DNA of 48,528 nucleotides from Atractiella rhizophila (taxonomy: Eukaryota), in assembly GCA_021432655.1 (NCBI GenBank), contig MU271376.1, positions 1-48,528 of the forward strand, in the 5' to 3' direction. Shown here one piece after another: positions 3,969 to 33,987 of this stretch. The notes beneath the pieces were generated by a model, which saw nothing but the letters and a program-made list of their open reading frames with translations, had not been told where the DNA came from and ran no database searches. The number at the start of each line of letters is the position of its first letter. The stretch's first letter is position 1. A program made the position numbers and the translations under genes.

Positions 3969-4485
3969 AATCCTCCCACGTCTGTCCGTGGAGAAGACGA
4001 CGTCGAAACCACATGAGTTGAGCTTATCGGTGGAGAGGAGAGCGCAATCAATTTCGGGTCAAAGAGAACATCGGTGAGTTCGATTTTTCTTTCCACTCCA
4101 TTCAGTTTTGTCAAGACTCTGACTGTTCCAATGCCAGTGGCCTTTGTGATGATTTCGTGGGACGAACGGATGCGACAAGTGTGTGGAGAAAGCAAGGAGA
4201 ACCAGGAACGGAATGGGACGATGTGGTCTGTTGCCGCAGAATCGACGTAGATCCCCTCGCGGTGAGTTCCATCTCCAGCGACCGTGTGGAAAGCCTCTGA
4301 GATCGTTGCTTCCCCAGGTTTTTCTTCTTCCTCCCGCTACTTCTTTCGGCAATCCCTCTCCCAATGACCTTCGATACCACAAAAGTGGCATTTGCCCTTT
4401 TTCTTCTCGCTTTTCGACCTCCCTACACCGCTACTTCCACCTCCCGATTTGGTATAGTTCCTTCCTCCTCCCCCAGACCTTGTAA

Positions 4486-5148
4486 CTAACGCTTCGCTAG
4501 GTTTGAGTCTGGATTCCTTCGATCGGCTTCGAGCAGGAGATGGGAAGCGATGTAGGAGGACGTGAAATCAGAGGAGGAGACGGCGTTGAACGAGGAGACG
4601 AGTTCGATCCAGGACGGGGGTAGGGAGATCAACAGTAGCATCGCGACATCCTCGTCATCCGTCTTGTCACCCATCGCCTTCAACTCTTGCCCCATGGTGC
4701 GAATCCGATTGACATGATCTCGCATCGACTCACCCTCGACGTAACGCGTGGTGTAGAGCTTCTGACAGAGGAGAACACGAGCCTGGCGGTCCTGGGTTTG
4801 GCAGAGCTCCTTGAGCCTATCCCAAACCTCCTTCAGCTTCTCAACATCGATGTCCCGGATATCGGTGAGTACGTGGTCTTTGCAGGCTTCGATAATGATC
4901 GAATAGACTAGGTTCGCCGGTCTCGTCCAGTCCTTCTGCGACGCCTCGACCTTCGGGACTTCCTCCGGCTTCCCAGCCTCTCCCCCAACGGCAATGGGTT
5001 TGACATCCGTCCCAGCAATGATCCCCCAGCATTTCTTGTCGAGCAGCTTCACATGGACACGGAAGTACCAGATGTGGTAGTTCTCCCATCCCTCGAGTTT
5101 TGGGATAGTCGAAGAAGTAAGTACGGTGGTGTCATGATTTTCAGACAT
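4486..5148 (-). pseudogene. Copia gag (Retrotran_gag_2/UBN2-like), frameshifted before the zinc knuckle
   Basis: IPKLEGWENYHIW...VWDRLKELC...EGESMRDHVNRI...VAMLLLISLPPSW motifs are typical of copia gag. Confidence 0.9.
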
Positions 5149-5192
5149 TTGAGGCTGACGAGGTGGCAGGGAATTCAGCTAGATGAGAACGA

Positions 5193-5205
5193 GCTCTCGC
5201 TACCA
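5193..5205 (-). promoter_or_regulatory. Primer-binding site (TGGTAGCGAGAGC)
   Basis: A TGG-initial motif complementary to a tRNA CCA end lies directly after the LTR terminus and upstream of the gag ATG (5148). TGGTAGCG resembles the initiator-Met PBS of Ty1. Confidence 0.75.
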
Positions 5206-5207
5206 AA

Positions 5208-5467
5208 TGATAAAGATTATGAGCGGTGGGACAAGCGGGACTGCAAGGTGCGAGACCAATCAAAACTCTCTTATTGTATGTTCTATATGAGAATGAAATA
5301 CATACCTGCAAGGTGCAAGACCAATCAAAACTCTGGGTCTCACACTTGCAGGGGAAGTTATTTTATAGCATAAAAGCTGAGTAATAAGAAAAAGGAACAA
5401 AGATGAAAGAAAGACTTCGCACCAGCAAGAGAAAGGAGGGTGCGTTTATGCTCCTGTCAAGATATCA
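5208..5467 (-). repeat. 5' LTR of the copia element
   Basis: Minus strand runs TGATATC...TTTATCA (TGATA/TATCA inverted termini) and ends 2 nt before the PBS. It has an internal CTGCAAGGTGC(G/A)AGACCAATCAAAACTCT direct repeat and a hairpin. The outer boundary is uncertain by ~10 nt. Confidence 0.7.
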
Positions 5468-6448
5468 TGCAGTTATCTTTCCCTCTTCGTCCTGTCGATC
5501 ATGTGTGCTTGGAGCTGATCGGAGAGGCATAGAGAGATGAGCGGGACCCTGATAGGGTATTCTGTGGTCAATGGGACCTTCAGGTTAGCAGCCGATTCCA
5601 GTACAGGAGCGTGTCGCCACATTTAAACCTTGTGTATCCGAAATCCATGGGCTCGAGAACAATGTGGCCGCCTCTCAACAACCAAGAGATATCCTCTTTA
5701 AGCTTTGCTGCCCTCACGCTCACATACATTCTACCTCAGGTTCTCATTCTCTGACATCGGACCCCACAACGAAGACATGTTCCCACCATGGTTCACGCTC
5801 TCTCTTCTTTTCCCTGCCTCTGCGTAGATTTTGCCAACTGGATCATAAGCCCAAGGAGGGGTGCGGCTTCCTCTTCGGCGATCATATTCACTCCAATAAA
5901 GTCCTAAAAATACCGCGGATGTTTCGCACTCGAATGGCCGGTAATCCTTTGAGCTAAAGGAGTCAGCTCCCCAGTTTCAAGCGAATGCGAGGTGTTGGAC
6001 CGGATGGGGGTCGAGAGGATTGTCGCTGGAAATATGTTGCAGGCATGTCGGAAGTATGGCATGGAAAGGTGGGAATTGGACAATCATCTCTTTTGCGATG
6101 CCATGGTGAGATGAATAGCGTAGAATTGACGAACCAAATTGTTTTGCAAATGCATAAGTACACAAGAACGTAGTATTATTCGTCCTGGATTTCAGCTGGG
6201 AGCAGCACCCCAGTGACATCCACCTAAGCTTCAAGTTCACTGTAAGCACATCAACCAATTTGTTGTAACGAGAGAAATGAAGGATCGACTCTTATAGCTC
6301 AGGACAAAAGCCAGCAATGAATCCATGACTGGACAGATAAGGTTGAGTCGAGTCTTTGCCTGCTTGAGATAAAGGATTTCGATCGTCGCGTTGTTTTTTT
6401 CTGGGAAGTGAAAAGAAAGCGCGGCTGAGACGTGAATGATACAGGTTC

Positions 6449-6669
6449 ATGATGGAGGAAGTAGTCGAGTTCCTGTCCTCTGACAATCCAAATGTCCGTC
6501 TGGAAGCAGTCAAGATCGCCAAATCCTACTCGACCCTACCATCCTCTCCTCTGCATTCTCCGACGTCAATCAATGCACTCAAAGCCCTCGTACAAGACAG
6601 CAATCCAGTACGTATCCATCACTCGCCTAACCTTACCGCTGACCACATCCAGCTTATAGCCCATGACGC
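6449..6669 (+). CDS. HGH1: HGH1-like protein (eEF2 chaperone), N-terminal part, cut by assembly gap
   Basis: MEEVVEFLSSDNPNVRLEAV...ALKALVQD, then a GTACGT..CAG intron (~6608-6652), then LIAHDA. This resembles the fungal Hgh1 N-terminus from memory. Confidence 0.6.
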
Positions 6670-6694
6670 NNNNNNNNNNNNNNNNNNNNNNNNN
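6670..6694. other. Assembly gap (25 N)
   Basis: Run of 25 Ns. Confidence 1.
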
Positions 6695-8732
6695 GGGGAT
6701 AAAAGACTTAGACTTGCCATGACTTTTATAGGTTTCTGTAGCAGTTAGTGACAGCGAGAGAATTACTGGTACCTTTCGGAGACCCTCTAAATGCTCGAAC
6801 TCGCGCGTTACCACGTAACACCAAACGCAGCTTCATAATTTACGCGTAACACGATCACATACCGCCTTTCATAAGTACACCTTCCTTCTGGTTTCTCGGT
6901 ACTGGTATCAAAAGTGTCCCTTCACAATCCCGACTGTGATACACGGTCTCAGCGACAACTTCTACGAGACCGCGGAAGAGATCGGGTTGATCTCCAAATA
7001 AGTAGCCTCTTCTGTAGTTCCCGTAATTTCTGGGAAACGATATCTCACATGTTGTGATTGAGAACATCCCAACTGCAGTTGACGGAACTCATGCCGTTCT
7101 TGCTATTTATCGATCTTTTCCGTTACGTTATTTCACCTTATTATTCAACGTTCTTTGTTACCCGTTGTAACGATCACTCTTTCCGATTCTCTATTACTTC
7201 TCTACCCTATATGAGTTTTAGATATTCTATATTTCGCTGACACGTACACTTGTTCTTACTCTTTTCCCTTTGACTTTTTTCCAGGCCTTTTACGTGTGCT
7301 TGGTCTTCTCCTCTTTAGCTATTCCAGCTTTCTTGCTGTTAAGGTACACTTCTTACGTTTTTCGCCCTGGTTTGTCGGGTCTGGATACTTTTCTATGCCG
7401 TTCTATGTCTGGCCTTCCGCTTTTATTTACTTGTATGTACTGTCGAGCCGTTCCGACCCGAGTTTTCACTTGGTGTCTAGCAGCCTGACATGAAGGCATT
7501 ACTGCACTTCGTCTGGTTGTCTTTTTACTTGTTTCCTTCGATTGTGTGGCTACACTTGGAGGACCGTGTTTCATGACAACTTCTACGATTCTGTCCGTAC
7601 AGAGATCGGGTTGATCACCACCATTAAGTAGCCTCTTCCGTAGTTCCCGTAATTTCTGGGAAACGATATCTCACATGTTGTAATTGAGAACATCCCAACA
7701 GCAGTTGACGGAACTCATGCCGTTCTTGCTGTTTAACGGTTTTTTCCACTACGATACTCCCACCCTAAAACACAACCTTCAGTAGTTACCGTAGAAACCA
7801 CACTATAACCGACTATATTACTTCCTACCTAGAAAAGTATTGGATTTCATTTCGCAGACACGTAAACTGGTTCTTACATTATCACTTTGACTCTTTATCA
7901 GACCTTTTAGGGAGTTGGACTCCTCCTCTATAGTTATTCCACTTTCGTACTGTTAAGATACACTCTCTAAGTTTTACTACTGGTTTGTGGGGAGGGATAA
8001 TTTACTACACCGTTATATGACTGGACTTCCGCTATTACTTACTTGTATATACTATCGAAACGAACAGACACGAGTTTTCACTAGGTGTCTAGCAGACTGA
8101 CAAGAAGGAATGACTGAACTTCGTCTGGTTGTCTTTTGTACTCGTTACCTTCGATCGGGAGGAGACACTTAGAGGACAGTGTTTAACGACAACCTACGTT
8201 CTGTCAGTACAGAGAAAACCAGACAAACCATCAAGTTTACTTCAGTGTCACTAAACTAAAGTGAATACAAACTCTTTCACCCTTCTCCACCCTTCTTCGT
8301 TATGAGATGAACACGACCAATTTCCTACTCGCATTCCGTGTTGTTACCTTTGATCTCTCTCGATTCTCCCCTGTACAAGAAGGCTTTAAAGTTTTCCACT
8401 ACTACAATATTTACGTTCACCATTGGTAACTTCAAACCCTCTCCTACTGCTCATTCTCTCGTCGCTCCACACTCTGACGTTCCACACTCTGGTTTGGTTA
8501 TTCTTACACCAAGATCGATACATTGCCGGTTTATGTCGTGGACACTCCACACTCTGGTTTGGTTATTCGTACACCAGAACGTGAGTGTCCCGTTAAGCGA
8601 AAATAGTCTCTTTTCACGACTTATTACTCTTCCACATTAACCTTCACTTCTCCTTTGAACTCGTGTGTGTGTTATTCCTACGATTCTCTGCACTTACAAG
8701 AGTCTTTCATCCTCCACATTCACAGGATATTG
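6695..8732. other. Mirror-orientation (complemented but not reversed) segment, probable assembly artefact
   Basis: 6924-6945 is the exact reverse, not reverse complement, of 2609-2630 (22/22). The plain complement of 8474-8494 matches 5239-5259 at 20/21. The right boundary is approximate. Confidence 0.88.
6954..8215. repeat. Imperfect ~620-bp tandem duplication within the mirror segment
   Basis: Units start GACAAC(TT)CTACG at 6954, 7575 and partially at 8188. They share long blocks such as GTAGTTCCCGTAATTTCTGGGAAACGATATCTCACATGTTGT and differ by many indels. Confidence 0.9.
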
Positions 8733-8898
8733 CCCAGATCACATATTTTGGCCTATTTGGAACTGTGGGAATGATCTATATTTGTGTTCACATCAGCGAA
8801 ATTGAATTCCGACTCCATGACTTGAAACCTTCATTGGCCCAAAAGGCCTACGACAATTCCAATTATGATGCATTTTCTGTTTCATTTTCAAGTAGTAA

Positions 8899-9393
8899 TG
8901 TTAGGGCAAACACTATGTGTGGTCGCCGACGGGCGATGCGTCTGTAGTGGAGATAAACCTAAGAGCATGATATGACATGAAGACTAACGTGTAGTGGAGA
9001 TAAACCTAACAGAATACTCTAAGGTCACCTTCACTACTCTCCAATCTATATATACAAGTGGAATAACACTGCCACAGAGTGTAGAGGAGAGCAGATGAAA
9101 CATGTAAGAGAACTAAAAGGGGAAGTGACAGTGGGATTACACGGAGTTAATAAGAGGAGGATAGGCACAGTTGGGCTAAGTGGTGATGTAGGTGCAAATG
9201 GGTGACGGGAGACGCAGTGGCGAACGGGCGCCGATTCGCAGGGAACGCAAATGGGCGATAGGAGACGCAATCCAGCGAACGGGCGCCAATTTGCGTAAGA
9301 TGCAAACCTGACAGATAGGCACAATTGGGCTAAGTGGTGATGTAGGTGCAAATGGGCGACGGGCGCCGATTTGCGTAAGATGTAAACCTGACA
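8899..9393 (-). mobile_element. LTR copy of the same family with internal duplications
   Basis: TGTTAGGGCAAACACTATGTG...AAACCTGACA, near-identical to 1875-2141 plus 2636-2702. The terminus is duplicated (ends at 9313 and 9393). No matching TSD. Confidence 0.9.
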
Positions 9394-10359
9394 TCACTTC
9401 AGCAAAGCCTGGTCTCTTGCAGCACATCTGCTTCACTCCTGCAACATCCTGCTTGCTCCTGCTCAGCCCGTTCATCTGGTTCGCTTCTGTAACATGCTGC
9501 TCCTGTAGCAAAGTGTTGCGTACTCCTGCAAAGTCCTGCTTGCTTCAACAAAGTCAGTCTGCTTCATGCACCTCTGCTTTGCTCCTGCAATGCCAAGCTC
9601 ACTGAAGCTACATGCTGGTTCCTCCAGTGAAGCAGTGGTTGCCTCAGCAAAGGCTGAAGGGGTGGCTGGCCCAGCAGAGGGACTCTGTAGCAAAGCAGTG
9701 GTCAAGGGCTGATACCTACAGTGAAGCAGCGGGGCTGATGTCTCCAACAAAGAGCAGTCTCTCTGATGAAGGTGCCTCCAGTGAAGCTATAGTTCCTTCC
9801 AGCGAGGGGGCTGTCCGTCCAGGGAAGGTTCTCCTCAGCGAAGCAGTGGTTATGGCCTGGATCCTTCAAAGATGTATAGGCCAATGCAGTGAAGGAGTTC
9901 ACTTCCAGCATGTCTGCGCCTCACTTTGGAGGTATGGACCGCATGCAGGAACTCATCTTTGCTCTGGGGACTTGGTCTCGTTCCAGTTCCGGTATGGGAG
10001 ATGCATGTTTGGGACCAGGTTCGATCTGGGAGGCCAAGGTCATGTCACTCTATGTTGAAGCCCATCAGGTTCTAAGTCATCTCTACATACCCTAAGGGGT
10101 CATGAGGTGCAGACCCAAAGCGGTTACTATCAGTTTGTGTGAAGCAGACTTCGTGAGAGAGGGCGAACTTGGTATGTTGCAGTTAGTTCCTATACAAAAG
10201 TGGTGATTTTGTGAAATGGGTGAACTTTGTATGTTGGAGTGCCAGAGTAGTTATTTTGTAACAGGAAGTGCATTCACTTCCCAAAAGCATGTGAGGCAAA
10301 AGTCACAACAACAGGTGGACTTTGCAGTTTGTAGCCAGCCAGCCACCCGGAGTACCCAC

Positions 10360-10756
10360 TGTCAGGCCTGCTCCTACATATTACCAAATTTCATCAATCT
10401 AGGTCATGCAACCTAATTTCCTACTTCACATTTTCGCACTCTTACCAACCACCGCTTTACGTTGTTGCATACAGGTCACCGCTCAGCACTTCGCCGGTCT
10501 GCACTGACACCATTTCGTCTTGACATTCTTTCACATTGCTCTACTTATTTTATCTTATTTCCAGTTATTCCCTTTGTTGCTTTTCCGATTTACTTATTTG
10601 ACATGTTTCATGGGCCATACTTTATAGTTCATGGTGGTGCCCTCACACATGTATATAAATCGAGATGTCGTGGTGATGACCTCAGAGTATTCTTTAGGTT
10701 TATCTCCACTACAGATATTGCCGATCGGCGAACTTTATATAATGTCTGCCCTAATA
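10360..10756 (+). mobile_element. Diverged LTR copy, possibly the 5' LTR of the gypsy relic
   Basis: TGTCAGGCCTGC...GTCTGCCCTAATA, colinear with 2142-2630. The terminal CA has become TA. Confidence 0.8.
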
Positions 10757-11618
10757 GAAGAATACTCTCCCTCCACCCTCTCTCTCTTCTTCAAAACCAA
10801 AGTTAGAAAAATGTTGGAGGTTTGGGGAGACATGAAAATGCACAATTCACTACCAACAGAAAAACGTATCTATCGCTCAGAAAGGATGTTCCAACTCTAT
10901 ACCTCACAACTGAAAAGCAGTTCAGAAAACTTGAACAAGACCTCATGTCAAGTTTCAACCAGTAAAATGCACATACTTCCCAGAATGTAATCGAAATTGT
11001 GCAACTGAGATCCGACCTCCAAAATACAAACGACTTTACGATTGCTAGATTCCAGACTAACTCTTCCTAGAGACAGTGGAACCACCTCCACCTTTTTATC
11101 TCGAACAGACCCAACACCTCAAGCATACTCCTCTCCTTCTATATATCGATCTGCAGTTTCACTATATGCAGGTACTAAACTTGTTTCACAATCTTCAAAG
11201 GAGTGCCCAACACAGCTCCAACCTTTTTACACGAAATTTACGGCTACACTTCTACTGTCCCAGGATAATTCCCCTCAGAAACATTAAAAATTCTAATTAC
11301 CCTCTCTTATATGAAAGATGGAGATGCTGAAAAATCCGCCGCTAGGATTTTGTGCTGACTTGTTGAAAATGAGGACTAAATTCGTGCAGCAATTTTTGTC
11401 AGAGTTCAGATCACGATTCTGCGCATCCAACCACTAACCCATCAGTGATGGCTGGACCCCAAAACATGTTTTCTATGAAGAAAAACAGCTTGAAAATAAC
11501 AAAACACAAGGAGAACAGACCACCTGTATTGTATCGACTGAGTACTAATCCCTCACTGAGCCCCCGAGGACATGGAGGTCGATGTGACACAATCTAGACC
11601 CCTCGTTGTCGACGATGC

Positions 11619-11712
11619 CAAAGAATAGGACACAGGGAAAGGAATGTAGGACGTCCATGAACAAAGAATAGGACACTGGGAAAGCGAATATAGGACATCC
11701 ATGAACAAAGAA
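11619..11712 (+). repeat. ~43-bp tandem repeat (2.2 copies)
   Basis: CAAAGAATAGGACAC(A/T)GGGAAAG..TAGGAC(G/A)TCCATGAA units start at 11619, 11662 and 11706. Confidence 0.9.
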
Positions 11713-12039
11713 CAGCACCTCTGAGCACAGTGTGAATATTTCAGTTCCAAGTTTGCGCAACAAGACTGTCAAGCGACCCAGATCATTGAACTTCTGACGA
11801 TAATGGTTGTTCCCCAATTGATAAGTCTAGATGAGGATTTTTAAAGCGGCGATGGGTGGAAGAAGTGTCCCCATTGCCGACCTGCAATTCTATTTCATCA
11901 CCTAAAACCACTTCCAACAAAGCACCACTTTGACTTTGTGCAGATTTCCCTCCTCCCGAATTCGACTCCCCCTTTCCAAAGATGAAAAAATACACCTTTG
12001 TTCCACCACTACATCTCTCGTCAGCTTGAAAACGAAACT

Positions 12040-12675
12040 CAGAACTACATTCCATCATCCATATTCCCAATTGCCGACAAGCCACATCGGTGCTTGTTGA
12101 CAGTGGGGCAACCATTTCCTTCATTTCCCCAAAACTCGTTTCTGCATACAACCTACCCATCACTCAACTTCCTTCCCCAGTAGCCAATTACAATATCGAT
12201 GGATCTCTCAATCAGGGGGGTTCCATCCATTCTGTTGCTTATTTACCCATTTTGATCGCTGCTCATCACAAAGTTTGGCAATTCGCAGTGGCGGAGTTGG
12301 GGACGGTTGACATGATCCTAGGTCATGATGGGCTGAGACACCACAACCCAGAGATTAACTGGGCTTTAGGAAAAGTAGAGTTCTCTCACTGCCCCACCCT
12401 TACAATGCGGTTGATGTGTCTACCCCATGCGAACAACTTCCATCGTCGTCTGCCTCAATACAAGCCACCATTACAAAATCGTAGAAACTGGCACAATACG
12501 TGGCGGCGATGAGACGAAAAAGTGGTCGAAATACCGGTGCAAATTGGAATTTTGCAGACATCTTTGATGACGAAAAATTCAAAACGTTACTTCCTCCACG
12601 ATGACTGTGGGACCATGCCATTAACCTTAAAACAGATGCTTGTTCTCTCAACAATGTTAAAGCCTGCAAAGGTGA
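12040..12675 (+). pseudogene. Ty3/gypsy pol relic: aspartic protease and pre-RT region
   Basis: LVDSGATISFI, YNIDGSLN, MILGHDGLRHHNPEINW, then frameshifted FADIFDDE...LLPPR*LWDHAINLK. Protease directly before RT is the gypsy order. Confidence 0.88.
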
Positions 12676-13004
12676 CAGATTGGCAACGGACACACATCCC
12701 ATTGACCAGTTATACTGCACGTTGTGTCTACAAGTGTGTGGCCTGAGCCTATTTAGTGGTGAGCTCCAAAATAAGCTTGGGTAGCTAGTGGGAGGAACAC
12801 CTGAGTGCCTTCCCCTAGACAGAGGAGTGAGTCCTATATCAACCATTACAGCTAAGGCCCCTACTCACTACCATTCCTTATGCCACTGTGACACAATTTA
12901 CACTCGTCACCGCCTGGCATTTTGCCGCTAATACTGAGACCCAAACTGCATACATTTCAGAGTTCAAAATCACCAATCCGGGCAGACTACTCGCTATTAC
13001 TACT

Positions 13005-13463
13005 TGTCAGGTTTGCATCTTACACAAGTCGGCGCCCATTCACCGGATTGCGTCTCCTATCACCCATTTGCGTTGCCCGCAAATTGGCGCCCGTCGCCAC
13101 TCAGCCTCTCCCGTTGCCTGTTTGTACACAGTGCAAATTGGCACTCAGTCGCCTGTTCGCCCATTTGTGCCTATATCACCACTTAGCCCAATTGTATCTA
13201 TTCTCCTCTTATTAACCGCGCATAATCCCACTGTCACTTTCCTATTTTAGTTCTCTTACATGTTTCATCTGCTCTCCTCTACACTCTGTGGCAGTGTTAT
13301 TCCACTTGTATATAGATCGGAGAGTAGTGGAGGTGACCTTAGTGTATTCTCTTAGGTTTACCTCCACTACAGGTTAGCCTTCAGGTCATATCATGCTCTT
13401 AGGTTTATCTTCATTACAGACGCATCGCCCGTCAGCAGACCACACATAGTGTCTGCCCTAACA
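13005..13463 (+). mobile_element. LTR copy (459 bp)
   Basis: TGTCAGGTTTGCATCTTA...GTCTGCCCTAACA is a reverse-complement match to 8899-9393. Confidence 0.9.
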
Positions 13464-13554
13464 GATACATGCTTTACAGTTCATGGCGGTGCCCTTACAC
13501 ATGTATATAAATTGAGATGTAATGGTGATGACCAGGCATTGTACATGCCTAACA
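13464..13554 (+). repeat. 3' fragment of a further LTR copy
   Basis: CAGTTCATGGCGGTGCCCTTACACATGTATATAAATTGAGATGT matches ~10625-10682 and ~2446-2503, and the fragment ends CCTAACA. Confidence 0.75.
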
Positions 13555-13560
13555 GACCAT

Positions 13561-15405
13561 CTATTCCTTGATGAACCCCAGACGCCAGTCAAGATAACCC
13601 CAAAATTTGCTGTCTATATCTGGTGCATATCGGTAGTCATCTCCATCTCCACCCTCACAAACCCAGGAACCTAAGCAAAGGTCGAACTCGCTTCCTTCAC
13701 ACTCTCTTAACATGCTCATCGCCCTGCTCATCTCTCCATCCAGCCATGCTCCAAAAAATAGGAGAACCCTTAAGTGCTTACCTGGGTCCCTAACCCCTCT
13801 GTTCCCAAAGAACCAGCAAATGAAATCTAAGAATATAAACCCTTCAAATTCAAACCAGTACACCATACAGTACCGAACATTTATTGAGGAGATTGCATTT
13901 GCATTTCTGAGGGTATAGAAGAACCTTTGGGGAACAATGTTGGAAGTTTCCTCACCACCATCGAGGTCAAGGGACTTGAGATGTTTGAGGTATGATAAAT
14001 CCAGCGGGGTGGTTAGAATGGATGTCTTCCCATCAGGCGAGTAGGACTTGAGCCAGATTGCAAGTTCTTGTAGGAGTGGTGGCAGACACGAGCCTGAGAT
14101 GGAGGCAGGGAGGGGACACAGATTGGCAAGGTGCAGCCGTGTTAGGGTTGGTGCAAGGGAGAGGGATGGGATAGGCGGATACCGATGAAGACATAGATGT
14201 TTCAGTTCAGAAGGTAATTCAAGGCCTGTTGATGTTGAAGAGCCAGAGTCTTCCACATTGTGAGCACGCAACTTTCTGATCCTGCCTCCTATCCTCCGCA
14301 TAAAATTCTCGATCTCATCATTCTTCCAACTCCTCCAACCTTGATCGCTAAAACCCACATCATCTAACCTTGTCAACCCTTCAATAGCATGTAACACAGT
14401 CTTTGCCTCCTCTTCAGTCCAAAATGCACCTATAAGAACTTCTTCAACATTAGGCGTGCCTGCAATGATGTCTTTTGCCATCTCAACTCGATTCCTATCG
14501 TCAAGCTTCGTACCAGACATAAACGAGAGGGTTCTCCAGAAACGTCCAGCACGGGGATCCAGTTTCAAACGAGCATACAGCTCCTGCACTGGAACATCTT
14601 GACGCCAATAAGGGATCGAAGCAGTCTCCCAGAGCTGACAGACATCAGAGACTCGCTGGAAGCAAAGGTCATATTGATCATCTTCAAGATCTTCAATGTA
14701 TTTTCCAAAAGAAAGGAATATGAAGACGAGAGAGAGTATCTCGGTAGGCAGCTGTGCAATAGTGCATGGATTAATCCCTGGAGTTCGAGTTGGGGACATG
14801 GAGAGTTGGATGATGTAGCCCTCACTGGTGGATGGGATGGCTGATGATTCCCATGCACTGACAGGAACGAAATTCCCACTAGAGAGGAGTGCAACGAGGT
14901 CAAAAATGACCTGAGAGCGATCATCTGGAAGATGGATCATGGATGTGAAGCGCCTCACGTGCACCTTGTCTGAATCCACAAATGTATGATGTTTCCTGTC
15001 CACAAAAGTTACTGTAATACTTTTCTCCTCCAATGTGATGCAAAAGTTCACTACACCATCAGAATCGACTGCACTTTCAAGACATTCAAGTGAGAAGTTT
15101 GACGATTTCGACGGCCCATATTCCCATGACAGAAACTCAACAGGGAAGACAAAGGTGATCCGGAGCATGCGAATCAATGGAGGTAGCCGAGCAACGAAAG
15201 AGGGAAGAATGGAGAGATGCATCGGAGTGTGTTCATCAAGGTGATTTATTGTGTACCAGGGAGCGATGAGATGAGCCAGTGCGGTTGACTCTGTTCCCTG
15301 ACCATCCTTGCATGGAATTGACGTTTCCATTTCAATCAAACCTAACGCTCGTTCTATTTGGCTTTGAGGTTGAACCCTAACATTCATGCAATTTAAAATT
15401 GGCAA
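13561..15405 (-). CDS. F-box / leucine-rich (RNI-like) protein with long N-terminal extension; probable extra upstream exon(s) at ~15430-15898
   Basis: 614-codon ORF. IAQLPTEILSLVFIFL...VSDVCQLW F-box-like motif near 14760, followed by LKHLCL, LTRLHL, LQELAI and LKSLDL repeats. Confidence 0.75.
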   Translation of the reverse strand: MPILNCMNVRVQPQSQIERALGLIEMETSIPCKDGQGTESTALAHLIAPWYTINHLDEHTPMHLSILPSFVARLPPLIRMLRITFVFPVEFLSWEYGPSKSSNFSLECLESAVDSDGVVNFCITLEEKSITVTFVDRKHHTFVDSDKVHVRRFTSMIHLPDDRSQVIFDLVALLSSGNFVPVSAWESSAIPSTSEGYIIQLSMSPTRTPGINPCTIAQLPTEILSLVFIFLSFGKYIEDLEDDQYDLCFQRVSDVCQLWETASIPYWRQDVPVQELYARLKLDPRAGRFWRTLSFMSGTKLDDRNRVEMAKDIIAGTPNVEEVLIGAFWTEEEAKTVLHAIEGLTRLDDVGFSDQGWRSWKNDEIENFMRRIGGRIRKLRAHNVEDSGSSTSTGLELPSELKHLCLHRYPPIPSLSLAPTLTRLHLANLCPLPASISGSCLPPLLQELAIWLKSYSPDGKTSILTTPLDLSYLKHLKSLDLDGGEETSNIVPQRFFYTLRNANAISSINVRYCMVYWFEFEGFIFLDFICWFFGNRGVRDPGKHLRVLLFFGAWLDGEMSRAMSMLRECEGSEFDLCLGSWVCEGGDGDDYRYAPDIDSKFWGYLDWRLGFIKE

Positions 15406-17838
15406 ATGTTAATCAGCAAGAATACACACTTATTATTTTCCATGCCAGCCAGCGAATGGTTCCTGTTGGATAACAACTGACTTGAATAGGGTGGAAGAGT
15501 GTAAGGGTGTTGGAGGATCTTGTTGCCTCCCGTTCCCAACAACGCATCATGTTGCGGAGACTCGTGTCCGAGGGGGGTAACGATGAATGTATCGTCATCA
15601 GAAACTGGATGGGGTCCACTGCTATGAAAGATAGCGCCAAAAAGGTTTTGACCACCGTGTCCGACAGCAGGAGCATGACCTAGACCTTCTGCACAACGTG
15701 ATCCTCCTTTCTGCACTTCGAGTTGTCGTGTAAGGTCCTCGATGCGTGCTTCATATCTGCTCTCTTTGTCAGCCTCACTCTTCACATACATATGGGGACT
15801 TTCTTGCTGACCATCCGCTGATGCTCATTCTTTATATCCACCAAAGCTTGTCGAATGGCATAGAGCTCTTGAATCTGCTTGAAGGCTGTTATAGGCATCG
15901 TTAGCAAACAGAACAAATGCAATTTATTCTTGTGACAAAGGTGTCATCTTTGTTCTTCGATCAATCGATTGTCAAAGACGAAAGAATCAAGGTTACGTAT
16001 TTGCTACTGCTTGCGATATCTGACAATCATCACATCCCTTCGATGTGAGGAGGAAACAAAGGGGTTGTGATCCTCGACTCGAAAATTACGAGGTCAAACA
16101 GTTCTGTGAGTCTTTCGGGATATCCCACAAATTATTCGGGCACGGGATGACTGTTCCATGTCCGCAGTCCCACATCATTTCCTCATTCGCTCACCGTTCT
16201 CATTCAACTCCTCTCTCTCATGTCTCATGGCCAATAATTCACTCTCCAAAACCTCCGAGTCAAAAGCCACCATATCTATGACTGCGTTCAGAGGTGTCGG
16301 TTTTCCGGACAGTCGTGAGGTGTACATCATGAGAAGGAAGGGCAGTCGTTTTAATCGCTTTGGATAAGGGATAATTCCTTCAAAGCAATCAATTATAAAG
16401 GTTGCGGGTGGTCGGAGGGCTGCTCCCATGATGTGATTGATCACATGGGGAAGGTTTGCGTCTGCTTGCTTGAAAAGGTTACGACTGGTTGAACAGTTTT
16501 TAACCGAACATCGCCGAATTGCAAGTGGCGAAGAAGAAGTGGATTTGAGAGGTGGAAACCACTTGCGCAAATCTAGGGCTTTTATGGCAAAGAAAGTATT
16601 ATGGAATCTCGTAGCATAGTCAGAACTTCTAACGCAATATTTTCTTTTGATTACCCGATTCTCCTCGCTCCTAGCCCAAGTCGCGGTAACCTTATTCGTA
16701 ACGTAAGTACACAACTAGATATCGCATTGCAACATTTGGCGGGGGACGACATCGTCGCTTCCTGTTGTGGAGAGGCAAGATAGATAGAGATCTTGCCTGT
16801 AGGAGACAGAGACTCCATAGATTCCCACATTGAAGCGGAACGCGGATATTTTCTTTCTGCTAACATACTACAACATACCAAAGTCACAATTCCAATTTCC
16901 CAAGGAAGACAAGAGGGTGCGACTGGAATGAGGAAGTCCAGTCCATATTAAGAGTGAATTTGTCATGGCGTACTGTCTCCGGGATATGACAGCTGACAAG
17001 GGAAGAAAGAGGGGATGAGTCCCTCATTCTTCTTGCAGTCTTTTGTCCTCGTTTGACGATGTAGGATTAACCCTAAAGGAAAGGAAGGGCAACAAGACTC
17101 CAACTTCCAAAAAGAATCATTGTCCAGGCATATCTCAATGCATCCATTCTGACTGCTACTCTGGCGAAGCATACCGAGAACGTTGGCCAATGCTGATGCG
17201 CTCTCGGACAATGTGTAGTAAACTTTTAATGCCCTGGGTCCAAACATGATGAAGCTATATGCAACGAGATCAAATTAAGTAGAGCTATCATGGGGGGGAC
17301 TTTTCAAAGCAAAGCAAAGGTTTTAAGGAAAGCGGTATCATACAAAAAGTTTGCAAACAGAGACAAATTGCAAAAACAAATGCGCGATGAATAGGAATAG
17401 CAATAAAGTGTTCAGTCAGTAGTGTCAATTTCAAACCGGACAAACCAAGTCATGGGAGGTAACTGTTGCTGCAGTATCACGTAACAAACAGCAGTCTTTT
17501 GGAAAGTTGATTGTGGTGGCAGAAGAACGGAAGGAAGGAGACTGGTGAGCGGGCTAGGTGCTATAGCCCATATGAATATAATACAGGACTATGAGTTGGA
17601 GGTTGTGAAGATGATGGATGGACTGGTACAGAATGAAATTAATAAACAAGGAGTGCTCTCAACCAAACCGATCCTTGGTGCTGCTCAGTTCTGATGCTGA
17701 CGGCATTGATCGATCTATTGTGCCTTTTGAACAGGGTAACCTGCGCAGGCATTTTGGGTCATCTCGTTCCTCTCGTTAGCGCTTGTAACATCCTGGGCAA
17801 CACGACAGCATAACCTTAGTCTGTTTCTCCCTGCTTCT

Positions 17839-19349
17839 TCAATGAGGAGCGACGTACTCGGTATCATCTGGTCCTCTCATCTCCACACTCATCCTCCTCA
17901 CTCTCTGGTAACTCCCCAACCCGCTCGTTCCACTCATCCCGGTAATACTAGGGAGCCTCGGCCTCCCCATCCCCATCCCAGTCGAGGGCCTTTGTATCCC
18001 GATGCCCAAGCCTCCCATTTCCCGATCAACGTCCATCATATCGTCCAGTTGATAGTGAGAGTGATTGTATTCGCTGCTCGTTCTCGACGAGGGAGAGGGG
18101 TTGGAGGAGCGTCCCTGGGAAGAGCCGGAGGAGGAGTTGGAGGAAGCGGACCGGAGGGGTTGGGATTGGTAAGGTTGCGGAGAGGGTGCCCTCATGCCGA
18201 ACATTCCTCTGGCTTGCTGCTGAGGCTGCTGCTGCTGCAGCTGAGGTCCGGGACTTGGTGCTCTTCTACCGAAGAGGCCTCCTGATGATTGAGGAGGAGC
18301 CGGTGGTCGTGTGGTTTGAGGCGGGGGAGTCGAGGCTCTCATTCCACCGAAGAGTCCGCGAGAGGGTTGAGTTTGGGGTTGTGTAGGAGGACGTGTCTGT
18401 ATGGGAGGAAGCCGAGTGTTTGCGGTGTTCGTCGAAGCAGAGGGTAGACCGCTCCTTGCGAATAAGGTCGGACGAGGTTGCTGTTGGGCTTGGGATTGGG
18501 AGTAAGAAGGGAAGGGAGCAGGTTGAGCTTGCGTTGGAGGACCAAACCGCTTGGTTGTAGGTTGAGGTGGGGGCTTGGCTGCACGTACAGACCCTGGGTT
18601 CGGCGGACTCTTACTGATACTGGTGGAACTCCCGCCGAACAGTCCGCCTGTCCCGCTTCGGTTCCTCGACGAGTTGTTGGCGTACATTTTAAATGGCACG
18701 GTGACCGATCTAAGGATTAGATCATTACTAACTCGTGGAAGTGTACGATACTCCCGATTGTAATATGCGACGAGGTGCCAGCGCTCGACTGTCGAGTTCG
18801 ATACCTGTCTGTTGATACAGATGGAGGCTCTGGTAAGAGGAAGCGCGCCGATTGGGTAGCCGCCTTCAGTATAAGTGAGAAAGACGCCGGACATTCTGGA
18901 CTGCTTGTACTGATGTTGTTGATCGATTAAGGAATAATGACAACCAGTTAGTTCTTAATATACCTGTCGATTGATACAGATGGAGGCTCTGGTGAGAGGA
19001 AGCACGCCCGTTGGATAGTCGCGTTCGGTATAAGTGAGAAAGACGCCGGACATCCTGGACTGCCCGCACTGATGTTATCGATCGATCAAGGAATAATAAC
19101 AACTGGTTAGTTCATTTTCTCTGACGCAGTTCGAGAAGGAATTTGCACCTTCAGGTGATCAGTCCATCGCATCATCCCGCTTTTACCTTCCTCAAACACA
19201 AAGACGGCGCCATGCTGGATTAGCTCTTCCCTCTCCTGCTCGTCTAACTTAGGCATGTCAACGAGCTTCCCAACAACACACGCGTGTACGATCTTCTCCA
19301 CGTCGGTGATGTCAGCTACGTATCCATGCCATGTAGCGTGCAACGACAT
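17839..19349 (-). CDS. Gti1/Pac2 (WOPR) family transcription factor, copy A
   Basis: TWHGYV...DVEKIVHAC...ELIQHGAVFVFEEGKSGMMRWTD...SRMSGVFLTY...WHLVAYY and a P/Q/S-rich tail. Exons 19349-19149, 19068-18964 and 18909-17839 all join in phase 0. Confidence 0.88.
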
Positions 19350-23144: not shown

Positions 23145-24544
23145 ATGTCGTTGCACACTACATGGCATGGATACGTAGCAGACATCACCGACGTGGAAAA
23201 GATCGTTCACGCTTGTGTTGAAGGGTTACTCGTTGACATGCCTAGAAGGTTAGACGAGCAGGAGAGGGAAGAGCTAATCCAGCATGGCGCCGTCTTTGTG
23301 TTTGAGGAAGGCAAAAGCGGGATGATGCGATGGGTAGATCATTTGAAGGTGCATATTCCTTCTCGAACTGTATCAGAGAAAATAAAGAACTAACTGGTTG
23401 TCATTATTCCTTGATCGATCAACAACATCAGTGCGGGCAGTCCAGAATGTCCGGCGTCTTTCTCACTTATACTGAACGCGGCTTCCCAATCGGCGCGCTT
23501 CCTCTCACCAGAGCCTCCATCTGTATCAACAGACAGGTATCGAACTCGACAGTCGAGCGCTGGCACCTCGTCGCATATTACAATCGGGAGTATCGTACAC
23601 TTCCACGAGTTAGCAATGATCCAATCCTTAAATCCGTCACCATGCCATTTAAAATGTACGCCAACAACTCGTCAAGGAACCGAAGCGGGACAGGCGAATT
23701 GTTTGGCGGGAGTAGTAAGAGCCCCCCAGAGTCTGTACGTGCAGCCACGCCCGCACCCCAACCCTACACCAAGCTGTTCCCTGGTCATCCAACGACGCAA
23801 GCTCAACCTGCTCCCCTCCCTTCTTACGCGCAATCCCAAACCCAACAGCAACCTCGTCCGAACTTATTCGGGAGAAGCGGTCTACCCTCAGCCTCGAACA
23901 CCGCAAACGCTCGACGTCCTCCCTTGCAGACTAACCCTCCTGCACAACCCCAAACTCAACCCTCTCGCCCACTCTTAGGTGGAATGAGAGCCTCGACTCC
24001 GCCGCCTCAAGCCGCACGACCACCGGCTCCGCCTCCATCATCAGGAGGTCTCTTCGGTAGAAGAGCACCAAGTCCCGGACCTCAAACGCAGCAGCAGCCT
24101 CAGCAAGCCAGAGGAATGTTCGGCATGAGAGCCCCCTCTCCGCAACCAACGCAATCCCAACCCCTCCGGTCCGCTTCCCCCGTCTCCTCCTCCCGCTCTT
24201 CCTGGGGACGCTCCTCCAATCCCTCTCCATCGTCGAGGACGAGCAGCGAATACAATCACTCTCACTACCAACCGGACGATATGATGGATATTGATCGGGA
24301 AATGGGAGGCTTGGACATCGGGATACAAAGGCCATCGACTGGGATGGGGATGGGGAGGCCGAGGCTCCCTAGTGTCACCGGGATGAGTGGAATGAGCGGG
24401 TTGGGGAGCTACCAGAGAGCGAGGAGGATGAGTGTGAATATGAGAGGACCAGATGATACCGAGTATGTCACTCCTCATTGCAGAAGCAGGGAGAAACAGA
24501 CTAAGTTTATGCTGTCGTGTTGCCCAGGATGTTACAAGCGCTAA
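23145..24544 (+). CDS. Gti1/Pac2 (WOPR) family transcription factor, copy B
   Basis: Same motifs as copy A. Exons 23145-23348 and 23432-24544 flank a GTGCAT..CTAAC..CAG intron of 83 nt. Confidence 0.9.
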
Positions 24545-27409: not shown

Positions 27410-29485
27410 GTTGTAGTGAGTGATCTTTCGGCCCCAATCTGCCGCACATCGTCTCCGATATTCGGATGTGTTTTTCCATTTTTTCCCAGCCAGAACTTAT
27501 CGAAATCGATTCCAGACATCAGACATGGATTATGCAGCTATAGCCGGTTGGACGCATTCCTGTTGTTGAAATCATGATCATGGCTGCGATGGCTGGTTAA
27601 TAGCAATCGGAGCGTTGTTGGCTAGAGTGAGACACAACCTAGCAGATATATCAACAGTATGAAACCGAAGAACTCTGATGCGCCTAGGAATGTTTATTCC
27701 TGAGTAAGGCTTGAGATTATGCCCCCGAGCGCTTTCCGTATTCTCAGCGTATGAGACGGTCGCTGAAGATACAAGTCAGCTAATGCAGAGTATCCATCCA
27801 ACGGTGTTTATCACCTTTGCTATCCCTCCTACAGAATAGCATCTGTACTCATATGCACTCTTACAGCCTCAAAGCCAACTTTTGTCTCCTATCTCAAGGG
27901 AAGAAGTAATCTAAGGGGCGACAACGGTGTGGCAGATTTACTGTCAAAGGTGGAACGCTGAACAATGAATGTTGAGTGCTTGCGCAGCTAGGACCAACGG
28001 CAAAGAATTAATTTAGGCGTGGGCAGGAATAACGTACAATTTGTACAATTTCGTCGTCTTTCATGAATCCTGATCCTGCGGCATAGCGAGTCCCAACCAC
28101 GTACTCACGTTCGAACATTCGAAGGCATCAATGCCATCGCGGGTATGTTAGGGTTGCTTTTCATGCTTTCCGAGCTATTAAGGAGACTTACGCAACGAAC
28201 GAAAGGCGGGAACTCGAGGGACTATGCGACAATTATAATATTGCAAGCAGCGCCCCACCCAGGTGGAACGGTAGAAGGGAACCCGACTCTCGTCTTTTCC
28301 CAGTGCTCCTGAAGCCAGAGGTGGCACAATTCAGCTCACCTCGCATAACAGAGCTGTAATGACAGGAATCTACTTCGTTGGCGTGTCGTGGCATTTTTCG
28401 GGAATGTATAGGTCGGGCGACATCGTGAAGTTGAATGAAAAGTTGTAGTGAGTGATCTTTCGGCCCCAATCTGCCGCACATCGTCTCCGATATTCGGATG
28501 TGTTTTTCCATTTTTTCCCAGCCAGAACTTATCGAAATCGATTCCAGACATCAGACATGGATTATGCAGCTATAGCCGGTTGGACGCATTCCTGTTGTTG
28601 AAATCATGATCATGGCTGCGATGGCTGGTTAATAGCAATTGGAGCGTTGTTGGCTAGAGTGAGACACAACCTAGCAGATATCAACAGTATGAAACCGAAC
28701 CACTCTGATGCGCCGGGGCATGTTTATTCCTGAGTAAGGCTTGAGATTATGTCCTCGCGCGCTCTGTTTCCATATTCTTAGCGTATGAGACGGTCGCTGA
28801 AGATACAAGCCAGCTAATGCAGAGTATCCATCCAACGGTGTTTATCACCTTTGCTATCCCTCCTACAGAATAGCATCTGTACTCATATGCACTCTTAAAG
28901 CCTCAAAGCCAACTTTTGTCTCCTATCTCAAGGGAAGAAGTAATCTAAGGGGCGACAACGGTGTGGCAGATTTACTGTCAAAGGTGGAACACTGAACAAT
29001 GAATGTTGAGTGCTTGCGCAGCTAGGACCAACCGCAAAGAATTAATTTAGGCATGGGCAGGAATAACGTACAATTTGTACAATTTCGTCGTCTTTCATGA
29101 ATCCTGATCCTGCGGCACAGCGAGTCCCAACCACGTCCTCACGTTCGAACATTCGAAGGCATCAATGCCATCGCGGGTCTGTTAGGGTTGCTTTTCATGC
29201 TTTCCGAGCTATTAAGGAGACTTACGCAACGAACGAAAGGCGGGAACTCGAGGGACTATGCGACAATTATAATATTGCAAGCAGCGCCCCCACCCAGGTG
29301 GAACGGTAGAAGGGAACCCGACTCTCGGTGTTCTTTTCCCAGTGCTCCTGAAGCCAGAGGTGGCACAATTCAGCTCATTTCGCATAACAGAGCTGTAATG
29401 ATAGGAATCTACTTCGTTGGCGTGTCCTGGCATTTTTCGGGAGTGTATGCATCAAGGTCGGGCGACATCGTGAAGTTGAATGAAA
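27410..29485 (+). repeat. Near-identical ~1.03-kb tandem direct duplication (27410-28441 / 28442-29485)
   Basis: Both units start GTTGTAGTGAGTGATCTTTCGGCCCCAATC and end GGCGACATCGTGAAGTTGAATGAAA, with only scattered SNPs and small indels. Confidence 0.97.
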
Positions 29486-30882: not shown

Positions 30883-31172
30883 GTTAGGCTCACAACTTAC
30901 AACTTCCCAAACTTTCCTACTCTATTGTGTCAGTCACTTTCCTCGCTTATAAAAAGGGAAACAGTTTACAATCGCATTCTCTCTTTGCTACACGACCCAC
31001 TGGTACAGTGTCAGGTTGAAGTAATTCGTGAGTCGCAGATTATCATTGGGGGAACTGGGAGTTCATTCGTTTTGTTTTGGTGTAAAAGGAACCGGCATCC
31101 TGCGTTTGAGCGAATAACCACGAAAAGAGACAACCTGAGCGAGTGATAGTTAACAAGATCGAAAGGGGCAGC

Positions 31173-32546
31173 ATGGCGGTCTCCCCAGGCGGCGGTTCAC
31201 TGCCGATGATTTTGGACGACGTTCTCGTGTGCATATTTCCGTTCCTATCCGAGAAGGAACTGTCAAAGCTCTGCCGCGTTTGTTGGTCTTGGAACACTAT
31301 CGCGCAACCTATCCTGCAGCGGCGACGCGTCTTCACATTTTCTCTGTTGCGAGGGGACGATAATTGGGATATCAAGCGTCTAGAACAGCAGCGCCAGTTG
31401 ATACACTCATCAAATGTTGGAAATGTCCGTCATTTGGCCTTATCGAACCGACACTCCACCGCCATCCCTCTTGCGAAGGACAACGCGAGCTGCATCTTCA
31501 TTTTCGCAGTTCTACAACAAGTCGCTCGGAACCTCGCGTCGCTTCACATCGAAGATTTTAACTTCACGAAACTGGATAGCGCGTTTACCTTCCCTCCCTT
31601 GCCTTTGCTCAGAAGCTTCGTCGTTGTCAATACCGACCAGGAAGTTCCCTTGGCACTTGAAGATGCATTCCCTCACTACTCTGCCAGCAGTCATCTAAAG
31701 GTTCTTGTCCTCCCCATGATTGACCAGCTCTCGACTTACCATCTCTCATCTTACGCCCTCACCCATCTGGAGTTGACGACTCAGAATAAAGAGCTTGACG
31801 AACATGCGAAAGGGAAGATTAGGTCTTTAACGTGTTTGACAAAGCTCAAGTGGACCTTCGTCGCCCCTCCGCTCGGCTGCATCCTTCCGTCCTTCATTAG
31901 GGACCTTACATTACGTTCTGTTCGAAAGTCGCGTTCTGTGGACCCCGTATCTTGGTCCATTGAAGAGGCTTTCCCAAACGTCGCTGATCTCTCGAACCTA
32001 TCTTCGTTGGCCCTCGCGAACTGTGTTCCTTTATCTCCTAATTTTCCACCATGTCAATCCAAGCTCGTAACGTTACGTGCCGGAGAAACGCTCGAAAATG
32101 AAGGAGACAGCGTATTCAAGCTTTTGCACAGTTCAGCGGAGTCGCTATCCGACTTTCAATTCACAGTCACGAGTCTTCACCGCCTTCGCCAGCTCGTTTA
32201 TCTCTACTGCGGGGGACGAAACAATTCTGATCCAACAATTGTCGATACTTTCAGACTTCTCAGCTCCAGAATAAAGAGCGTGTACTTTGGACATGAGTAC
32301 GAAAGGAGAAACTTCCAAGCGCGTGGTGTGACCGGCGGTGAATTGCGTCTTCTTGTGGCTGATCTTGAGGGAGAGTCGGATATTGCGACGGCGTTGATTA
32401 GCGCGGTCCAGGAAGGATTACTCCCGGCTTTAGAAGTCGTCGCCCTCCCATGTGAGATGGAAAAGGAAGTATTAAAAGCGATTACGAATTTAGGGAATGA
32501 GCATCATTTCAAAGTCAGAAGTCAGTCCTTTTCTTACAAACAGTGA
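31173..32546 (+). CDS. F-box / LRR-like protein, intact family member
   Basis: Intronless ORF with LPMILDDVLVCIFPFLSEKELSKLCRVCWSWNTIAQPIL F-box, then VRHLAL, LASLHI, LTHLEL, LTKLKW and LSSLAL repeats. First ATG is at 31173. Confidence 0.85.
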   Translation: MAVSPGGGSLPMILDDVLVCIFPFLSEKELSKLCRVCWSWNTIAQPILQRRRVFTFSLLRGDDNWDIKRLEQQRQLIHSSNVGNVRHLALSNRHSTAIPLAKDNASCIFIFAVLQQVARNLASLHIEDFNFTKLDSAFTFPPLPLLRSFVVVNTDQEVPLALEDAFPHYSASSHLKVLVLPMIDQLSTYHLSSYALTHLELTTQNKELDEHAKGKIRSLTCLTKLKWTFVAPPLGCILPSFIRDLTLRSVRKSRSVDPVSWSIEEAFPNVADLSNLSSLALANCVPLSPNFPPCQSKLVTLRAGETLENEGDSVFKLLHSSAESLSDFQFTVTSLHRLRQLVYLYCGGRNNSDPTIVDTFRLLSSRIKSVYFGHEYERRNFQARGVTGGELRLLVADLEGESDIATALISAVQEGLLPALEVVALPCEMEKEVLKAITNLGNEHHFKVRSQSFSYKQ

Positions 32547-33085
32547 GCAAAGATACTAATCGTTATACATCCGCCTGGATATTCAAAGAGCTGCGCTTCC
32601 GATCGTCAACGCCAATTAGGGCTATGCCTGGCTATTCCTTCAGGAGATAGCTTCGGGATTGACCTCCAAAGTATCTGTCATCTGTCTCTCGCCCCAGTCC
32701 CTTCATCATCCGGTTCACGAAATCTTTTCTCTCTGTTCTTTAGCATTATAAAGCAGAAAATCATTATTTCTCCTACTAATGTATTATGTTAATAGTCATG
32801 TATGGTTGCAAAATCCATACCTCCCTAGTTTAGATGCACATCCTCCAGTCCCATACACTGAGGACAAGGTCATCAATTTGTCGGGAGACTCTAGATCTCA
32901 CACTGAGCTCGGTTGAGCTGACTGTCAACAACTTCCGACTCGTTGCAGCCAGAAAGGACAAAAGTGGAAGCTTTGATTTACTGAAACTTCATGAATCCGT
33001 CAAATAATATATAGCAAATTTAGTTTGATCCGCTCGCCAAAGAAGAACATTCGCACTTTCAAGTTATCAGTCGGGAGTTCCCAAT

Positions 33086-33400
33086 TTGAGTGCGTTCAAA
33101 AGAAAAGTTGCGATGTCATGCCATTCCCTAGGAAGATTAAATCCTCGATCCTGGATCTGGCAACTATGTTGTCAGATAGCGGCTGGAGAGGCACAATCAG
33201 CTTATGGTGTAGGAGCGACACTCTTCGAATATCAGCAACGCCAGCCATTTGTCAGCAACGTCCGCCATTTGGCTATCAGACGATTAATGGACAAACGGAT
33301 CTCGGGAAGCCATCCTAGCTGCATCTCGGTGTTCGAAATCCTAGAACAGCTAGCTCCACATCGAGTGTCGCTTCGCATCGAATATGACTCCGTAATTTGG
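33086..33400 (+). pseudogene. Relic of the F-box/LRR family
   Basis: QQRQPFVSNVRHLAI...SCISVFEILEQLAPHRVSLRIE aligns with QQRQLIHSSNVGNVRHLAL...SCIFIFAVLQQVARNLASLHIE of 31173-32546. Confidence 0.7.
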
Positions 33401-33715
33401 ATGGCGCCGCTCAGACAGTTGTATCTAAAGCCACTTTTCCATATCTTCTTGTCAGCTGGCAGCTAAACTCAAAAATGGGCGAAAATAACCCGCTTACTAG
33501 ATGATAGCCTTGCCTGCTCGAAAAGGCGTAAAACGAGACAGAAAGAGAGAGAACACTGTCATTCGAATGAAGAACTGTGACCGCTAAATGATGTAACTCC
33601 TGTTTTACTTGCTCCTCGTGCAGGGGGACGAAGCTTGGTTAAGAAGCTTTGAAACTTGGTGGGCATTTTTCTTTTTTGCTACAGCTTCCCACAAACATAT
33701 CTGGTAATGCTTTTC

Positions 33716-33987
33716 TCAATGTCTGCAGAGGTCTGTACCGCATGAGCTAGGCACATCAATCTTTTCCACGTCCTTGGTGCACCATCCTCCGAAATAATGA
33801 TCTGGCTCAGGGTCGACCTGATCAAGCATTAGCATATTTTTCAATGTTCGAGGGAAGTCACACCTCTTCATCGTCCACATACGCCTTCCAGCTCCCTCTC
33901 GGGTGCTCATGATGGGCGTGGATATGAGGAGAGGATGTTGCGTAGAAAGCAAGATAGCCTTTCAAAGATGCGAAGTCCGCAATAGGG
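33716..33987 (-). pseudogene. 5'-truncated duplicate of the DUF427 gene
   Basis: PIADFASLKGYLAFY...VDDEE|VDPEPDHYFGGW starts abruptly at the duplication junction. Confidence 0.85.

Follow-up and report, generated by a model that had tools for sequence, protein, structure and literature searches.

An apparent exon duplication in a WOPR gene of Atractiella rhizophila is a mosaic of two paralogs that is more probably due to misassembly than to recent intron gain

Copy A and copy B are two genes standing head to head in a 48,528-nt stretch of the Atractiella rhizophila assembly (GCA_021432655.1, contig MU271376.1, C197 in the contig numbering used below, positions 1 to 48,528), the whole of which is called the window here (table 1). 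Copy B encodes 438 aa and holds one unit of a segment that copy A, on the minus strand, holds twice. The assignment of these genes to the WOPR family in the preliminary description was confirmed. For copy A itself, exon 1 matches PF09729 (Gti1_Pac2) at positions 1-61 (E 2e-16, 61 bits) and the public gene model P0001, apparently a prediction, scores 76.1 bits against a gathering cut-off of 23.6. The fold assignment comes from the structural model of a paralog, P0002, which has pLDDT >90 over residues 1-140, contains both WOPRa and WOPRb and has its best matches with PDB 4M8B (Foldseek E 1.3e-13), 4QTK and 4QTJ. Mapped onto this model, the repeated exon corresponds to P0002 residues 69-103, with two strands (73-75 and 78-83) ahead of the linker and one (94-103) behind it. 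The unit-1 exon thus reaches from the penultimate strand of WOPRa to the first strand of WOPRb.

Table 1. Positions of the features of copy A, copy B and the adjoining block, in window coordinates.
Feature	Position	Strand	Description
Copy A exon 1	19349-19149	-	201 nt, ATG at 19349, first 67 aa of WOPRa
Copy A intron 1	19148-19069	-	80 nt, donor AAG/GTGCAA, 100% identity to paralog P
Unit-1 exon	19068-18964	-	105 nt, phase 0, identical to paralog P exon
Putative 54-nt intron	18963-18910	-	GTATAT..CTAAC..CAG
Copy A last exon	18909-17839	-	unit-2 exon, remaining WOPRb, long P/S/Q-rich tail
P-identical tract	19248-18960	-	289 bp, 0 differences from paralog P (C4, exon end 240405, minus)
Q-like tract	18959-18715	-	245 bp, 99.2% (243/245) identical to paralog Q (C4:245376-245620, plus); first 95 nt exact, differences at 18864 and 18848
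Join	18960/18959	-	blunt, P-type tract meets Q-type tract, one occurrence in assembly
Alternative 159-nt intron	18963-18805	-	between two CAG/GTAT sites; would restore one-unit protein
Copy B	23145-24544	+	head to head with copy A; exon 23145-23348, intron 23349-23431 (83 nt), exon 23432-24544
Window block	1-18954		94-97% identical to C4:218.7-240.6 kb where aligned

WOPR genes are numerous in this genome. PF09729 has 25 matches, two pairs of which represent one gene each, giving approximately 23 loci, some with stops and some that may be alleles. About a dozen of them are 80-97% identical to copy A in DNA; these are mosaic and lie in head-to-head or tandem groups on contigs C4, C83, C12 and C197. 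On C4 the truncated paralog Q (C4:245k, plus) stands head to head with paralog P (C4:240k, minus) at a distance of 5 kb. The subfamily resembles the known WOPR regulators (Wor1, PDB 4QTJ/4QTK; YHR177W, PDB 4M8B; Ros1) in the PF09729 match, the fold and the presence of both WOPRa and WOPRb. It differs from them in its expansion (about 23 loci against the two WOPR genes that the available excerpt of PMC4917244 gives for most fungi), in the WSPSR motif, which reads CGQSR or YKQSR (C or Y for W), and, for copy A, in the loss of an arginine pair. In an alignment of 27 WOPR proteins the conservation of R34 and R35 is at least 90%; a 3-nt deletion and a substitution near 19249 (19249-19252) turn MPRRLD into MPKLD in copy A, which thus lacks both and also lacks the W and P of WSPSR. 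From these residues, DNA binding by copy A is doubtful. A literature search, itself weak, yielded no published account of a WOPR expansion of this kind.

Several other members carry rearrangements of their own. One and the same foreign sequence truncates paralog Q (from C4:245621) and the C83 copy (~32.4 kb / 33 kb), at a different position in each. Both C12 copies (19.6 kb and 92.9 kb), which have stops or frameshifts, share a 169-nt insertion that lies between GATCC repeats, is closely preceded by GT motifs and ends in CAG; it may represent a further new intron or else a small inserted element. A distant WOPR paralog on C383 (minus strand) has three out-of-register tail segments after it, the middle one a 279-nt piece of another lineage (C383:40332-40610) set between two segments of the copy itself, with 1-2 nt of microhomology at the joins. 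With its private substitutions, this insert looks old and real.

The rest of the window is rich in repeated sequence. Block 1-18954 was compared with C4 in pieces over 3699-18954, plus 1-250; it would be either a segmental duplicate or a second haplotype of C4:218.7-240.6 kb. Since the block follows this part of C4, the 3' flank of copy A is the counterpart of the 3' flank of P. Two tandem duplications of ~1.03 and ~1.4 kb (27410-29480 and 32612-35472) are ~97% identical with several indels, and the first has a blunt join. By eye, broken copia-type retrotransposon frames with gag, protease, integrase and reverse transcriptase motifs occupy 1345-5178 (minus), and three related F-box/LRR-like frames, partly inverted, lie at 31110-32546, 42246-43831 and 44968-45393, with further relatives on C197, C330 and C421. 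Short repeats are interspersed at 1875-2630, 8899-9367 and 13000-13533. The whole of contig C1674 is a 99% copy of 37243-39068, and the canonical Gti1-type gene on C298 (18.4 kb) recurs almost unchanged at the end of C425; both are possible alleles of a heterokaryotic culture. A fully diploid assembly is not supported, as the greater part of 35000-48528 occurs without a second near-identical copy, a few duplicates at 99% aside.

The repeat in copy A is far beyond chance. Tandem Repeats Finder reports a period of 159 with 87% matches and a score of 486 over 19115-18801. A repeat of ~160 bp, made up of the 3' end of an intron and the start of an exon and missing from copy B, had been described previously, and it is present in the assembly, although it runs beyond the boundary at 18866 that had been given for it. 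Intron sequence makes up 50 of the 159 nt, so the unit is not purely exonic, and a GT lies near its end. The splice geometry proposed earlier, a 105-nt phase-0 exon followed by a 54-nt stretch with donor, branch motif and acceptor, likewise stands at the coordinates proposed, and the two exon peptides are as quoted, by translation of copy A and comparison with copy B. Intron 1 of copy A occupies a position common to the paralogs aligned. The putative 54-nt intron is made up of 4 nt of former exon and the last 50 nt of a Q-type intron 1 (50/50 nt identical to Q), and includes an in-frame TAA at 18957-18955.

The history proposed for this geometry, an intron gained by tandem duplication with later divergence of the two copies, is not supported. 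Aligned across the join, copy A follows P on the left and Q on the right with zero overlap; P-diagnostic bases extend to 18969 and Q-diagnostic bases begin at 18957. A 2-nt AT microhomology at the join was considered and ruled out, as the alignment shows a blunt join. Unit 1 being P and unit 2 being Q, derivation of both copies from one gene segment fails at copy A, and the supposedly diverged YKQSR copy is the exon of Q. Simple duplication followed by divergence is thereby ruled out, since each unit is identical or near-identical to a different paralog: unit 1 and unit 2 are pieces of two different paralogs placed end to end. Hand counts over 159 nt agree, with eight differences between unit 2 and copy B, 15 plus a 3-nt gap between unit 1 and copy B, and 20 plus a 3-nt gap between the two units, the most distant pair of the three. 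Being nearer to unit 2, copy B is a relative of that unit and not simply the preserved unduplicated state for which it had been taken. The second unit is found in none of the 11 other aligned family copies in the same genome, nor in the C383 copy. Copy A as a whole is pieced together from tracts resembling B, C83, P and Q, and its B/Q-type alleles extend beyond the truncation point of Q.

A more elaborate form of the duplication history would place a tandem duplication inside copy A, with B ancestral and the units diverging later, and would have P and Q each converted separately from one of A's units. Identity alone gives no direction of transfer, and tandem duplications of 1.0 and 1.4 kb, counted as blunt, lie nearby. 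This history nevertheless has to accommodate two units that are further from each other than either is from B, and derived bases that unit 2 shares with B and Q, and unit 1 with P and C83. It also requires two conversions, each ending within 2-10 nt of the join. We consider it highly improbable.

Whether the join exists in the organism was addressed with two sequencing runs, X1 and X2, of DNA from one sample. The depth sums below depend on the rules assumed for contig simplification, which govern the survival of junction and branch contigs. The data are simplified contigs, not reads (Logan contigs, built according to the excerpt of 10.1101/2024.07.30.605881 by Minia3 with SPAdes-like heuristics), the figures refer to the contigs and differences listed, the depth sums were made by hand, and a hole in the cover of simplified contigs is no proof of absence. 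Both runs match the A-private stretches on the two sides of the join, with no difference among those listed. Taking a 946-nt upstream contig as single-copy depth (128.7 in X1, 88 in X2), the P-type intron contig at 19046-19174 has 270.8 (2.1x) in X1 and 175.2 (2.0x) in X2, from which the 5' half of copy A is a real second P-type copy. The contig at 18671-18825, at 2.1x and 2.2x, agrees with the 2.2x expected for A, Q and partly B, so the 3' half is real too.

No contig bridging 18960/18959 was found among those listed for X1 and X2. In X2 the bin 18940-19006 has a depth of 58.5, which equals 18 x 217.6/67 and is thus the share of a single Q-type contig, in which 18957 is followed directly by 19114. 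The depth of bin 19074-19140 (262.9) equals 175.2 + 27 x 217.6/67. A real branch at the join would be expected to give a 60-nt junction contig and another contig starting at 18959, and the X2 sum has no room for them. The X1 bin value also fits without junction contigs, with more assumptions. The depth of the Q-type contig, 1.94x (X1) and 2.47x (X2) single-copy, fits better with two full Q-type introns (2.0-2.2x) than with a second copy starting at 18959 (1.55-1.7x). P's own bases 18960-19006 are likewise missing in X2. The contigs of both runs lack the 3-nt deletion of copy A, and simplification would be expected to remove a minority allele in this way. In metagenome contigs, two scans for exact patterns gave 0 matches to the join pattern; the organism may be absent there.

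The observations thus comprise a two-paralog mosaic, a blunt join and approximately two copies of each half-type in the DNA runs. From these we infer that the join is absent from the organism, and the manner in which an assembler would have made it. It is somewhat probable, in our judgement, that the apparent exon duplication arose in the course of assembly, when the 3' half of one paralog was attached to the 5' half of another. Gene 1 would be real in the 5' half, with its private upstream region, exon 1 and P-type intron and exon, and gene 2 in the 3' half, with the end of a Q-type intron, its exon, tail and 3' flank, within a family of more than 10 close WOPR paralogs. The assembler would have carried the first piece 289 nt into sequence common with P, started the second where it could be distinguished from Q, and abutted the two out of register, with the result that 159 homologous bases appear twice. 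Each real gene would then have one intron and one unit, with no new intron and no two-unit isoform.

The length of the exact match to Q may be a trace of such a start. From the join to the first private SNP, identity with Q runs for exactly 95 nt, which is K-1 for K=96, the value at which ALLPATHS-LG builds its unipaths according to the excerpt of PMC3483556. A copy-private K=96 path would start at the join if that copy had Q's upstream sequence. The run therefore fits a K=96 assembler, with the limit that K=96 belongs to ALLPATHS-LG, which may not be the assembler used here; the chance of a coincidence is about 0.4%, or a few percent allowing for post hoc noticing. The 289-nt P run left of the join is in turn comparable in length with the stretches by which two other contigs end inside near-identical copies, 266 nt for C425 and at least 263 nt for C1674. 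C586 opens with an orphan 3' half of a WOPR family member (the first 800 nt, of which 66 nt at the start agree exactly with copy A), a sign that the assembly does not resolve the family completely.

Several observations weigh against an assembly join. The join has no N gap, although gaps elsewhere carry 25 N. A 95-nt run was sought and not seen at other contig ends (C1674 start 137 nt, end at least 263; C425 end 266; C197 start 14), nor at the start of C586 (66 nt to copy A) or in the two tandem duplications of the window (198 and 50 nt). In the C383 copy a piece of another paralog lineage, with private substitutions, sits out of register, which suggests that events of this kind take place in the family.

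These points bear on the main alternative, a real and recent out-of-register gene conversion between P and a Q-type copy A, which we regard as a substantial possibility that falls short of being probable. One-sided strand invasion is a known route of break repair. A break in intron 1 of the Q-type copy A would have been followed by invasion of P by the upstream end only, copying of P through the exon to 4 nt past a latent CAG/GT, and blunt joining to the other end. The outcome would be two units from two parents, and a latent donor with a functional branch point and acceptor within the next 54 nt. The absence of an N gap fits such an event, and the older insert on C383 is comparable. A patchwork of tracts is expected under frequent conversion, and the tracts are fresh (0 differences in 289 nt for P, 2 in 245 for Q), with B/Q alleles beyond the cut-off of Q. 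The intron length also falls in the modal range of the genome, and linker length in WOPR proteins varies widely (156 aa in Ros1, in the excerpt of PMC4917244). Against this, the join is unseen among the listed X1 and X2 contigs, depth agrees better with two full Q-type introns, and the 95-nt run must be a coincidence. The donor GTATAT is not clearly enriched before acceptors, although neither are the family's own GTGCAT and GTGCAA, and copy A, without the near-invariant RR pair, may not be under selection.

A third alternative keeps the join real and private to the sequenced culture, where a non-homologous deletion would have fused neighbouring co-oriented paralogs while the culture behind X1 and X2 kept both. 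This would explain a clean, N-free join that is absent from X1 and X2. The matches of these runs to A-private stretches on both sides nevertheless indicate the same or a very close strain, and the 95-nt run is still left without an explanation; we think such a fusion most unlikely. An error of assembly stays more likely than a newly born intron.

Should the join be real, its products would depend on splicing. A survey of 600 kb of the genome (60 stretches of 10 kb) places the peak of acceptors 44-68 nt downstream of consensus donors and shows G at +5 in most of the enriched donors (GTGCGT, GTGAGT, GTATGT). For GTATAT before acceptors (167 sites), the z score was 2.0 with one definition of the branch site and 0.1 with another, and the family donors GTGCAT and GTGCAA were no clearer; the power of the survey is too low for rare donors. 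The U1 donor consensus is CAG/GTAAGT. Counted by hand against it, the new donor CAG/GTATAT matches at 7/9 positions, the ancestral latent site at 6/9 and the intron-1 donor of copy A at 4/9 plus one wobble. With a donor of 7/9 and a length in the modal range, the 54-nt intron is plausible if the join is real.

Four outcomes can be read from the sequence in that case. Splicing of the 54-nt intron, adding 35 residues, is plausible; unit 1 could be skipped; the 159-nt intron could be removed, leaving one unit as model P0001 assumes; or the 54 nt could be retained, with termination at the TAA after 104 aa. The last two had not been considered in the preliminary description. In a two-unit protein the extra 35 residues would probably loop out at the variable WOPRa-WOPRb linker, judging from the P0002 model and the alignment. 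None of the four runs compared (X1 to X4) shows a spliced isoform. Contigs of run X3 fall in 17 of 30 bins but leave 18605-19140 empty, and run X4, presumed to be RNA, gave a single contig of depth 3, at 17956-18211, with no cover of the introns. That the join is real, that the 54-nt intron is spliced and that a recent paralog-templated repair thus made a new intron and a two-parent, two-unit WOPR domain in one step is, taken together, unlikely.

The closest published parallel is the potato RdRp gene PGSC0003DMG402000361, in which, according to the excerpt of PMC4974935, an intron was gained by duplication across an intron-exon boundary; verification of the join there came from 53 genomic and 106 RNA-seq reads. 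In both genes, if copy A is taken as assembled and spliced, the duplicated segment comprises the 3' end of an intron and an exon, the branch point and acceptor are inherited, an extra exon results, and a few former exon bases with a cryptic donor (10 nt in potato, 4 nt in copy A) pass into the new intron. The potato intron differs, as far as that excerpt goes, in its GTAAG donor and single source gene, where copy A has a donor without G at +5 and two paralog sources, and in being verified by reads, where the join of copy A is known from the assembly. Tandem genomic duplication is among the mechanisms of intron gain listed in the excerpt of PMC3443670. The AGGT model of Rogers (Rogers 1989; ATP2A1, Hellsten et al. 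2011), as described in the excerpts of PMC4974935 and PMC3443670, resembles copy A in that the unit ends in CAG/GT and a 159-nt intron between the two sites would leave the protein unchanged. It departs from copy A in that the unit here is not purely exonic and has a stronger inherited acceptor inside it, and that no clear branch motif is seen by eye before 18805.

Intron transfer between paralogs would be similar, if the join of copy A is real, in that paralog sequence is moved by recombination; it concerns a whole intron moved in register into an empty site, whereas copy A has part of an intron with an exon, out of register, and a new donor. False duplications arise in short-read assembly of near-identical repeats or haplotypes. 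Assembly collapses are usually in register, and abutted contigs usually have an N gap between them. Copy A resembles false duplications in its blunt join, in the near-perfect match of both sides to other places in the assembly and in the unresolved contig ends nearby, and differs from the usual ones in being out of register without an N gap. The excerpt of PMC4974935 names this risk, and adds that few recent intron gains have an identified source. We found no published case of a new intron arising from an out-of-register paralog copy, judging from search listings alone.

The best reading of the locus is as a warning that repeats in young paralog families of this assembly need read support before an evolutionary reading. 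If the join is real and the intron spliced, the architecture would already be known from potato RdRp, with the difference that the sources of both halves can be named here. With both donors still in the genome, at 100% and 99% identity, this would be a paralog-templated gain of an intron observed very soon after its origin, among some 23 WOPR loci that exchange DNA-binding segments. Firmer than the join, as a peculiarity, is the family to which copy A belongs, with about 23 mosaic WOPR loci where most fungi have two genes.
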